Assembly (NCBI GenBank): GCA_028715665.1
Contig: JAQURI010000001.1
Coordinates: forward strand, 1 to 63,010
Source: Candidatus Ratteibacteria bacterium
GTDB lineage: Bacteria > CAIJMQ01
Reading direction: 5' to 3'
DNA length: 63,010 bases
Below the pieces are notes generated by a model, which was given only the letters and a program-made list of their open reading frames with translations, was not told the origin of the DNA and made no database searches. How positions within the stretch are numbered: the stretch's first letter is position 1; each line of letters begins with the position of its first letter. The translations under genes were made by a program, and so were the position numbers. Shown in pieces: positions 57,209 through 59,451 of the stretch.

Positions 57209-57455
57209 TCCTCAGAACGGGTAGAAAAAACAGGAAGTGAAACATGGGAAAAACAAAAACTGGTGGGCATTCACAGACCACAATGGAATCATGCGACGAT
57301 TCGTGTAAAGCAAAACCAAATTGCACAGCAATCAGGAACCTAATCCAAAACGAACAGGGAATTGTATTCCGGTGTCCAATTCAGTCACGGAGGTGAGCAA
57401 AACGGGACGCAAACATGGGGCAAAACAACCCCACCAAAATCCAAGCCCATCAGGA

Positions 57456-57983
57456 ATGGGCGGATTATACGGGTTACAGTTCCCGGCGCAGTCCACTCAT
57501 CGAAAGAATAAAAAGTATGTAATTCCACTTTCGCATATATTTCCAGTTTCGCATATTATAGTGATATCAAAAGATTTTGACCTAACAGACCTCGGAGAGT
57601 ATAATCCTCAAAATATTCGTTCAATTATTGGTATACCCCACCCCGGATTGATAATAGATTATCCAGAAAAGGCAGATTATCCACAGGGCGAAAGGAAATA
57701 TTTCGTATCAACAAGCGACGACATTGGCATAATGGAGATGATGTCGTATTCGAACAAGAACTCTCATTGCCTGATATTTGGGTCTGTAGAAGGAGAGCCG
57801 CTAAGACAGGAAACCGGTTGGCTATACAGGATAAAACCTTATTTTTCACGGGAGAATCGTGAAGAAACGATAACAAATATGGTAGAAATATTTAATGTAA
57901 GGGCACAATTGAAGAAAAAAGAACCTGAACCGATTCCGCGACCGAACCCAATCACTGAAAGATTAAAGCAGGTGCAATTATGA
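57456..57983 (+). CDS. Paralog family member B (VSHI..IS..F..TDLG.Y family)
   Basis: Shares VSHIIVISKDFDLTDLGEYNPQNIR, SNKNSHCLIFGS.EGEP and the ITERLKQVQL tail with the next two copies. The start is uncertain. Confidence 0.5.
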   Translation: MGGLYGLQFPAQSTHRKNKKYVIPLSHIFPVSHIIVISKDFDLTDLGEYNPQNIRSIIGIPHPGLIIDYPEKADYPQGERKYFVSTSDDIGIMEMMSYSNKNSHCLIFGSVEGEPLRQETGWLYRIKPYFSRENREETITNMVEIFNVRAQLKKKEPEPIPRPNPITERLKQVQL

Positions 57984-58486
57984 AAGATAACACATTTCCA
58001 GTCATCCAATTATACTCCCCCGACGTGTGGCACGACGAACAGGCCATGGTAATGAATGAGGAAGGGCGGAAGAAACTCATTGAAGCTCTCCAGTCGGGCG
58101 CAACCAAAGTGGTTATCCCAGCATTCGTAAATGATGGAGAAGGATACTACCTGTGCATACATGTAATACCGGATAAAGAAATCGAGAAATTCAAATCTCC
58201 ATATACCGACGAGATGTGCAGGAATCTGTTCGGTGAAGCAGAGAAAGAAGAGCCAAAATACTCGGCCACGTCGGGGGAACACAGATTAATTGAGCAAGGC
58301 AAAGATGCTGGTGAAGGGAAAATGAATCCAAATGCAACAGTGTCCAGAATTTTATATTTTTGGTTATACCTAGCAGCAATAACGGTATCATATATGTCAT
58401 CATCAGCAAAAATAATATTTTTCGTTCTGGCGTTAGCAATGGGTTTGCTATTTGTGCAAGAACTACTCAAGACCGGAGGGAGCTAA
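57980..58486 (+). CDS. Hypothetical protein with C-terminal TM helices
   Basis: ATGA overlap upstream. 168 aa. Confidence 0.5.
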   Translation: MKDNTFPVIQLYSPDVWHDEQAMVMNEEGRKKLIEALQSGATKVVIPAFVNDGEGYYLCIHVIPDKEIEKFKSPYTDEMCRNLFGEAEKEEPKYSATSGEHRLIEQGKDAGEGKMNPNATVSRILYFWLYLAAITVSYMSSSAKIIFFVLALAMGLLFVQELLKTGGS

Positions 58487-58490
58487 AACG

Positions 58491-58958
58491 ATGACTCCAA
58501 CACTTGCAGTATCGCATATTTTCGTGGTTTCAGAAGACCTGAATATCGTTGACCTTGGAGAATATAGTCAGAACTTGCTTCATATTATACAAATACCTGA
58601 ATGTCCCCCAGAGTCTCCAGATATGATATTGGAAATAGAGCATCCTTCAACAAAAACAACACAGGTATTTGTAACAGATAAAAGTAAAAAAATACCAATA
58701 ACCGATATCTTTTCATGTAGTAACAAAAACGGGGATTGTATCATCATGGGTTCAATGAAAAACACGTATTCAGTCGAAGATACAACAATAATAATTATAG
58801 AACCGTATACTTCAAAAACAGTCACAGAACGCATGAATAAAGAGGTAGATGTGCTGAATAAATTAGCCGAAAAGGGAGCACGATATTTCGAGAAAAAACC
58901 AGACAAAATCCCTCAGCGAAATCTCCTCATAGAAAGAATGAAACAGGTGCAGTTATGA
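58491..58958 (+). CDS. Paralog family member C
   Basis: MTPTLAVSHIFVVSEDLNIVDLGEY...SNKNGDCIIMGS...LIERMKQVQL. GGAGGGA lies upstream. Confidence 0.6.
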   Translation: MTPTLAVSHIFVVSEDLNIVDLGEYSQNLLHIIQIPECPPESPDMILEIEHPSTKTTQVFVTDKSKKIPITDIFSCSNKNGDCIIMGSMKNTYSVEDTTIIIIEPYTSKTVTERMNKEVDVLNKLAEKGARYFEKKPDKIPQRNLLIERMKQVQL

Positions 58959-59451
58959 CGAAAAACAGTGACCCAGAAAAAATAGTTGAGGCGCATAGAA
59001 AAAATCCGGTTTCGCATATTATGATAATATCAAACGAATTTAAAATAACAGACCTCGGTAATTATAAACCTCAAAATATTCGTCCGATTAAAGGTAGTCC
59101 AAACGATGGATTAATAATAGAATCTCCAGAACAGGAAAGAATAAATACTTTGTATCAACAAGCGACGACATTGGCATAACGGAGATAATGAGTTTTTCGA
59201 ACAAAAACTCCCATTGTTTGATATTTGGGTCTATAGAAGGAGAGCCAGTAAAACAGGAAGACGGCTGGATGTACAGGATAAGACCTTATTTATCAAAAGG
59301 CGACTTGGCTGCCTTAACGAAAGATTATGATAGGATAGACTGGTCGGAACAGAACAATGATGAACCCAAATCGGAACAGAAGGGACTAACATTGAGATTA
59401 AGAGCAAAATTGAACCTAATCACTGAAAGATTAAAATGGGTACGGTTATGA
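58955..59451 (+). pseudogene. Paralog family member D, split by a 1-nt frameshift near 59141-59147
   Basis: The N-terminal part (58955-59179) and the C-terminal part (other frame, to 59451) together align with paralog B at nucleotide level. The break lies in the A-rich run AGAATAAATAC. Confidence 0.6.

Follow-up and report, generated by a model that had tools for sequence, protein, structure and literature searches.

The window analysed here, 63,010 nucleotides (nt) of contig JAQURI010000001.1 from an assembly filed as Candidatus Ratteibacteria bacterium (GCA_028715665.1), carries a tandem array of a rare protein family that has escaped annotation. The array is real and not an artefact of the assembly. 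It lies, with all its parts and the two flanking genes described below, on the forward strand, and comprises three paralogs, A (57456-57983), B (58491-58958), and C (58955-59451), whose open reading frame (ORF) coordinates are those given in an earlier note made from the letters of the window. It further contains an unrelated membrane-protein gene between A and B, and a credible relic of the family tail in front of the part of A that is homologous to the family. As an overall explanation it seems rather probable that the family occupies a fixed slot before a zinc-ribbon gene on an archaeal replicon, that this slot is subject to rearrangement, and that the conserved C-terminal tail of the family is doubly coded, the same codons specifying a peptide and supplying the translation signal for the next gene.

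The array and the state of its copies

The relationship between the three paralogs is far beyond chance. In sequence comparisons A matches B with an E value of 3.6e-18, the C-terminal half of C with 8.9e-27, and the N-terminal half of C with 1.1e-12. A hidden Markov model (HMM) of the family gives E values of 7e-47, 2e-64, 3.5e-9, and 2e-22 across the pieces of the array, that of B being 2.3e-64. The motifs from which the earlier note had concluded that these are paralogs are all present in A, B, and C: VSHI..(V/I)S....(T/V)DLG.Y, SNKN..C(L/I)I.GS, and the tail ..(I/L)(T/I)ER(L/M)K.V.L.

That note had also stated that the claim would fall if the paralogs were assembly duplications. This is not what was found. 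The nucleotide identity between copies is at most 78-85%; for A and C it amounts to 85% across 153 nt and to 79% across 131 nt, and B is far more diverged from both at the DNA level than they are from each other. The copies are thus too diverged to represent collapsed or duplicated reads. Moreover, two Logan contigs, which are separate per-run assemblies, are 100% identical to the window over 4.9-5.8 kb (SRR22315509, 57080-62913, 5834 nt; SRR22315508, 57080-62037, 4958 nt), and both reproduce the frameshift in C and the odd 5' end of A. Although the contig stems from a metagenome bin and has been binned with the wrong organism, an assembly duplication, or a sequencing error behind the frameshift in C, can in view of these data practically be dismissed.

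The three copies are in different states when compared with related contigs, which represent 12 distinct loci (designated L0xx below; L021/L027 and L028/L029 are given as pairs). Members of the family fall into two subtypes, and B (155 amino acids, aa) belongs to type I. Its alignment with homologs runs over the full length, from Met1 to the last residue, and a GGAGG is found upstream of the start. B is the sole canonical, intact copy in the window.

Copy A is of type II, and its homology to the family spans 57528-57980. The position equivalent to the family start, ATG 57517, directly precedes a TAA and is 5 nt out of register with the gene body. Just two starts are in frame. ATG 57456 is abutted by AGGA and has a poor ribosome site; GTG 57372 overlaps the gene upstream and was chosen by the gene caller, giving a protein of 203 aa. 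In addition to what the earlier note described, A is itself degenerate at the 5' end, where the ancestral start has been lost. The gene body opens with an imperfect 18-nt tandem duplication (57525-57560, PLSHIF / PVSHII, 14 of 18 bases identical). A second imperfect 18-nt repeat (57657-57692, DYPEKA / DYPQGE), read from the sequence and the alignment, lies where A exceeds the type II genes of L018 and L030 by 15 nt without a change of frame.

The frameshifted copy described in the earlier note is C. Its N-terminal half, of type II (58955-59179, 74 codons), ends at a premature TAA at 59177-59179, while the homology goes on in the -1 frame as the C-terminal half (59143-59451). Compared with the intact type II genes of L018 (L018b) and L030, C is one base short. 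The alignment with these genes places the net 1-nt deletion in the interval of about 59125-59150, where the two independent assemblies agree and where A has its in-frame insertion of 15 nt. Translation of C could also begin inside the gene, at ATG 59188, which has a GGAG in front of it; the product would be a tail-bearing fragment of 87 aa. A programmed ribosomal frameshift was also considered and found unlikely; no slippery heptamer of the form X XXY YYZ occurs in 59098-59179, where the two frames of C overlap, and the orthologs in L018 and L030 are read in a single frame.

A short ORF of 35 codons (57415-57522) had been pointed out as a remnant, since it ends with what looks like the family tail (RRSPLIERIKSM followed by a stop, 57484-57522). 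When the six frames of the 1.43-Mb bin and of all loci were screened for two tail patterns, this was the sole match outside the family, the others being true tails and 115-aa proteins that carry the tail. Its best nucleotide match is the tail of B (CTCATCGAAAGAATAAAA versus CTCATAGAAAGAATGAAA, 16 of 18 bases), a score reached by 3 of 500 shuffles, and the other tails match less well. As a family-HMM match alone, however, it is not significant (E value of 14 genome-wide). The relic is thus credible rather than proven.

The doubly coded tail

Across the loci the tail retains the residues NPIVERMK, although these are encoded by different codons (GAA/GAG, AGA/CGA/CGT/CGG, ATC/ATT/ATA, CCA/CCG). 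The last four codons behave differently. In 14 of 14 tails with an ATGA overlap they are fixed as NNG GTN NNN YTA TGA, with GGT and TATGA invariant. The tails are non-independent samples, so no probability is attached to this invariance. The telling point for a constraint on the DNA is that the residue before the valine switches among Q, M, R, and W, and that all these amino acid changes keep the G at the end of the codon. The NPIVERMK part is conserved as protein, and the last four codons are constrained as DNA.

The earlier note had claimed that the codons of the tail hold the Shine-Dalgarno sequence and the ATGA overlap for the following gene. Indeed, A, B, and C alike have a GGT(G) at a distance of five bases from the ATG with which the next gene starts, and this ATG is part of the ATGA overlap. 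In the tail of A (NPITERLKQVQL followed by a stop, 57945-57983), CAG GTG is the predicted ribosome site and TTATGA the start, both serving the next gene. All 14 coupled tails show the layout expected for translational coupling, an ATGA overlap with a ribosome motif 4-10 nt upstream inside the upstream ORF, and GGTG is found at a similar distance before other genes of the block as well. No 16S rRNA gene from which an anti-Shine-Dalgarno sequence could be read is present in the bin, and the ribosome site is predicted by motif. At the level of sequence, coupling between the doubly coded tail and translation of the following gene is shown.

Different genes follow the tail. In most loci the zinc-ribbon gene comes next; at the junction from B to C and in L018a, L028, and L030 there is another family copy, in L022 the gene for a 115-aa protein, and in the case of A the membrane-protein gene. 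The sole locus where the family gene has no overlapping downstream gene, and no zinc-ribbon gene, is L024. There the GGT is lost (GCA ATA), and the tail is the most divergent of all (NRITERTKAIEL).

It might be argued that the tail is conserved solely as DNA or RNA, as a ribosome site, coupling signal or recombination site, and not as a peptide. The invariance of GGT and TATGA and the position of rearrangement breakpoints at the tail would fit. However, the eight codons of NPIVERMK vary synonymously with constant residues, and no conserved RNA structure was found at the tail, which makes a purely nucleic acid role very improbable. A search for Rfam families in 47-63 kb of the window gave no match.

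Translationally coupled genes in which the stop and start codons overlap as ATGA, and in which the Shine-Dalgarno sequence lies in the 3' end of the upstream gene, occur in bacterial, phage, and archaeal operons. The junctions described here resemble them in the 4-nt ATGA overlap and in the GGT(G) five bases upstream within coding sequence, and many junctions of the block are alike in this respect. They differ from ordinary coupled genes in that the signal lies inside a C-terminal peptide conserved throughout the family and travels with duplicated, truncated, and fused units. A further difference is that it has been recruited to start an unrelated, truncated gene.

The conserved gene block and the rearranged slot

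The family is part of a block of small genes on one strand. In the related contigs a gene for a small radical-SAM enzyme, in some cases followed by a type IV pilin-like gene, precedes those for a 50-aa protein with four cysteines and a protein with a soluble domain. After these come genes of 62 and 88 aa, the family itself, the zinc-ribbon protein (about 200 aa), a further protein (about 157 aa), and more genes. The family has a fixed position directly upstream of the zinc-ribbon gene; in 11 of the 12 distinct related loci this gene comes after the last gene that bears a tail. In the window the zinc-ribbon gene is found at 59448-60044; homology places its start at ATG 59448 (MSEQTKIVP..), in ATGA overlap with C, and not at ATG 59436 as given by the ORF finder. 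The left neighbour of the array is the gene for the 50-aa four-cysteine protein (57244-57396), whose 3' end carries GGAGGTGA. In six related loci this protein shows 66-86% aa identity, and most of the nucleotide changes affect third codon positions. The gene, often missed there by gene callers, probably encodes a real, small protein that binds zinc.

While the position of the family is fixed, its content is not. An HMM scan of all loci showed a single family copy in L017, L019, L021/L027, L022, L024, and L031, two copies in L018 (type I then type II) and in L028/L029 (both type I), and three in L030. In the latter the second and third copies are fused into one ORF of 435 aa (L030 998-2305) by one extra T at the ATGA overlap (CTTATGACC instead of the CTATGACC of L028), so that a type I gene is joined to a full-length type II gene. 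This fusion shows the fragility of overlapping stop/start junctions. In L020 the family gene is interrupted by a 475-aa RRXRR+HNH (IscB-like) gene, leaving an N-terminal piece of 113 aa and a C-terminal piece of 87 aa. Closely similar RRXRR+HNH genes, encoding 475-503 aa, are found in L020 (10339-11766), L024 (1-1422), and contig C7 of the bin (G000; 8680-10191).

A derivative that has kept only the tail is also found. The 115/116-aa proteins of L022 (6560-6907) and L028 (2003-2353) consist of a basic N-terminal region and a C..H...CxxC zinc motif joined directly to the family tail, with no beta domain between them. Their N-terminal zinc domain also heads full-length type II proteins, in L030 and, in part, P0009. 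The earlier claim of a family that duplicates and decays is thus supported beyond the window, by a copy number of one, two or three in related contigs, the fusion of two copies, the derivative that has lost the beta domain, and the copy interrupted by an IscB-like gene, while in the window only B is canonical. The family slot is a hot spot of duplication, deletion, fusion, and insertion.

The membrane-protein gene between A and B (57980-58486), which encodes a soluble domain followed by two C-terminal hydrophobic helices, had been recognized from the letters alone as an unrelated, intercalated gene. It is real, with orthologs in L019, L020, L022, and L024 to which it shows 56-71% aa identity over residues 2-115, and it is in addition truncated, as these orthologs carry about 55 extra N-terminal codons. 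An alignment of the junction with L019, L020, and L022 (L024 was not part of it) places the right edge of A precisely; the homology to the family tail ends at TTATGA, and the homology to the membrane-protein genes begins at (G)AAGATAA. The gene appears to be a 5'-truncated ortholog for which the tail of A now provides the ATG, in frame. In L019, L020, and L022 its orthologs are trailed by separate genes of 62 and 88 aa; these are missing in the window, and this part of the block has thus also been rearranged.

In a maximum-likelihood tree, A, C, and L018b group together as type II (support 100/100), apart from B and 14 others, which make up type I. Within type II, A and C are sisters (98/96), the longer branch being that of C. 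As the tree places A and C with L018b, the order of B followed by C corresponds to that of L018, where a type I gene is followed by a type II gene, and A seems to be an extra type II copy particular to this lineage.

Most simply, the arrangement would have arisen as follows. Copy A, as an additional gene of type II, would have been placed 1.5 kb upstream along with some 39 nt of a B-like tail. The incoming segment, made up of the B-like tail end and the type II copy, would have replaced the first 55 or so codons of the membrane-protein gene, which would thereafter have been read from the ATG of A's tail. A would have lost its own start during the insertion or afterwards. Since each unit would bring the translation signal for the next gene, rearranged arrays would be immediately expressible.

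Tandem multigene families of viruses and mobile elements are known to expand and decay, the 'genomic accordions' of poxviruses being one example. The array shares with these the local tandem copies, the copy number that differs between close relatives, and the frameshifted and truncated members. Unlike in the accordions, the orthologs are under purifying selection, and the copies are old (dS of 0.46 between A and C) rather than recent amplifications.

Possible functions, distribution, and host

With B as the query, HMMER was run exhaustively against 1.84 billion representative proteins and returned ten; a profile search of 5.8 billion proteins returned about 20 members, all metagenomic and none with a Pfam domain. 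A and B were assigned to no family in Pfam, PHROGs, NCBIfam or PADLOC, their neighbours gave only generic or sub-threshold domain matches in the same libraries, and no recurrent weak family was found across 17 members. No relative of the family was found in IMG/VR or among the GTDB species genomes, and a scan of JGI metagenomes returned one locus, already among the related loci. In B numbering the invariant residues include H9, S14, D21, G23, Y25, S75, N78, N80, C83, G87, P105, Y106, E118, N144, E148, R149, K151, and L155. The earlier description as an orphan family of unknown function holds insofar as the family is unannotated in every library tried. It is not private to one lineage, however, as about 20 homologs occupy the same position in a conserved block and the orthologs are under purifying selection.

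An AlphaFold2 model of B, made from an alignment of 17 sequences, has a predicted local distance difference test score (pLDDT) of 74.8 and a predicted template modelling score (pTM) of 0.65. In the model, residues 8-105 form seven strands and residues 111-128 a helix; a disordered linker comes next, and the tail is modelled as a terminal helix of low confidence. A family member combines a beta-rich head (about 105 aa) with a helix, a linker that varies in length, and the C-terminal tail NP(I/L)(V/I/T)ER(M/I/L)KxVxL. A profile search of the PDB gave no sequence match at E values up to 10, and Foldseek found no match to the model with an E value below 0.001 in PDB or BFVD.

Based on this architecture it may tentatively be proposed that the tail is a portable two-in-one module, in which the peptide docks its bearer on a common partner and the DNA supplies the ribosome site and start for the gene downstream. 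The tail would then form an amphipathic docking helix, and the different heads, type I, type II, and the zinc domain alone, would bind one and the same partner, most simply the zinc-ribbon protein encoded downstream. If this is true, heads may be duplicated, swapped, deleted, and fused at one slot and still be expressed and connected, and the array would represent a plug-in system that diversifies a protein complex of an archaeal mobile element.

Several points weigh against the module and against the course of events outlined above. The docking role and the zinc-ribbon partner are inferred from architecture and adjacency alone, and the co-variation that supports docking comes from a single locus, L024. 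The relic is just 39 nt long. Furthermore, A and C are not recent copies (dS of 0.46), so the insertion was not a recent event, and recombination from another element is as possible as a local duplication.

Among the other roles that may be considered for the family, the earlier note had favoured an arms race. This would here mean a fast-evolving counter-defence or host-takeover family whose variable copy number is kept by such a race. What may be expected of such genes is partly found. Copy number varies among close relatives (1-3 copies), with pseudogenes, fusion, truncation, and an insertion of the insertion-sequence (IS) type, and the surroundings consist of small orphan genes. The ratio of nonsynonymous to synonymous substitution rates (dN/dS) between A and C is 0.65 (dS 0.46), with 0.31 in the core and 0.84-1.03 at the ends, the maximum being 1.03 over 33 codons. 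Between orthologs, however, dN/dS is 0.16-0.35 with dS near saturation, which points to purifying selection. In these pairwise ratios no convincing excess over 1 is found. The raised value for A and C is to be expected where both copies are damaged, and fits relaxed constraint in broken copies as well as diversifying selection. In addition, there is no PADLOC or other defence-related match, and the position and the tail are strictly conserved. An arms race is on balance an unlikely explanation.

In single-stranded DNA-binding proteins such as E. coli SSB and T7 gp2.5, a folded head is followed by a disordered linker, and partners dock at a conserved tip at the C-terminus. The family resembles these in having a head, a variable linker, and a conserved terminal peptide, and it could be imagined to bind single-stranded nucleic acid through a barrel of the oligonucleotide/oligosaccharide-binding (OB) type, with the tail recruiting partners. 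The weak Foldseek list for B against PDB would be in line with this, being dominated by OB-fold proteins (RPA14/32, N-terminal domains of aminoacyl-tRNA synthetases, Rpb7, eIF2-alpha). These matches are, however, not significant, with E values of 0.08-0.9, probabilities of at most 0.15, and TM-scores of 0.13-0.28, and no sequence match to solved structures was found. The tail of the family is basic and hydrophobic and not acidic like that of SSB, the model has seven strands and not five, and the model of a possible relative, described below, does not return the OB list. An SSB-like role must be considered improbable.

A role in virion assembly or DNA transfer seems just as improbable. It would be suggested by a 402-aa protein encoded on contig C7 of the same bin, which matches the family HMM with an E value of 0.11 genome-wide and contains the motif LPHIFLIDDKFKLIDLGWYDP. 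When this protein was aligned with seven homologs, hhalign gave a probability of 44% and an E value of 2.4e-4 over 110 columns. The model of its N-terminal domain (pLDDT 70-84) has seven strands in the same order as in B, and then helices; outside this domain the model is poor. It has long predicted helices after this domain, and its gene lies two genes upstream of one for a HerA/FtsK-like ATPase. The homology is nevertheless uncertain, as SNKNxDC is not conserved in the C7 family, and a Foldseek search with the low-confidence C7 model was uninformative; the kinship is suggestive only. Neither the block in the window nor the related loci contain a recognizable capsid, portal, terminase or conjugation gene. 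The C7 region itself (G000, 13725-19696) encodes a secreted 403-aa protein, the 402-aa possible relative, an acidic 259-aa protein, the ATPase (434 aa), and a 488-aa orphan, and may be a virion-assembly or DNA-transfer module of another archaeal element. A match of A to contig C17 (E value 8e-5) was dropped, as it was not recovered by the family-HMM scan; judged by eye from its translation, this ORF looked like an unrelated, possibly HAD-type, enzyme.

The overall explanation given at the outset, of a doubly coded family in a rearranging slot, places the array on an archaeal replicon. The bin contains four sigma-70 genes and no TFIIB, while the window encodes an archaeal AglB and carries an archaeal pilin signal. 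The contigs C1, C2, C7, C48, and C49 form a tetranucleotide outlier group within the bin, and C2 carries the chromatin protein MC1, which among the control genomes is found only in Haloferax and Methanosarcina. Together these features indicate that the window contig is archaeal and has been misbinned into a bacterial genome. Comparison with the supposed relatives of the bin is thus meaningless for this contig, and the misbinning affects any comparative reading of the window. The absence of the block from genomes of the "same genus" had been considered a sign of an accessory element, and was rejected since the bin is bacterial and the contig archaeal. An AglB search aimed at naming the host gave no match, and the relatives of TnpB proved to be non-methanogens. 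The virus or plasmid setting assumed in the earlier note found no support. In the window block and the related loci no capsid, terminase, portal, replication initiator, integrase or conjugation gene was recognized, and there was no match in IMG/VR, the INPHARED phages or the PLSDB plasmids.

The kind of feature described here is ordinary. As tandem orphan families are common, and coupling through ATGA likewise, the general picture is unchanged. The family itself, however, had escaped annotation. It is now defined by about 20 members, two subtypes, a set of invariant residues, and a usable structural model. The array further gives a base-by-base record of a doubly coded gene end that keeps tandem copies and an unrelated gene translatable after rearrangement. 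This should be useful when annotating the poorly known mobile elements of Methanosarcinales-like archaea.

Some repeats are found upstream of the array. Gene 56471-57208 contains a perfect 36-nt direct repeat (57002-57037 and 57074-57109) with a period of 72 nt, and both Logan contigs begin at 57080, inside its second copy. A 31-nt cassette (ACCGATACCTTTATCGTAATTATGTTT..) occurs in three copies, at 51233, 53580, and 55937, just upstream of start codons, and that at 55937 is probably the head of the transcription unit to which the paralog array belongs.

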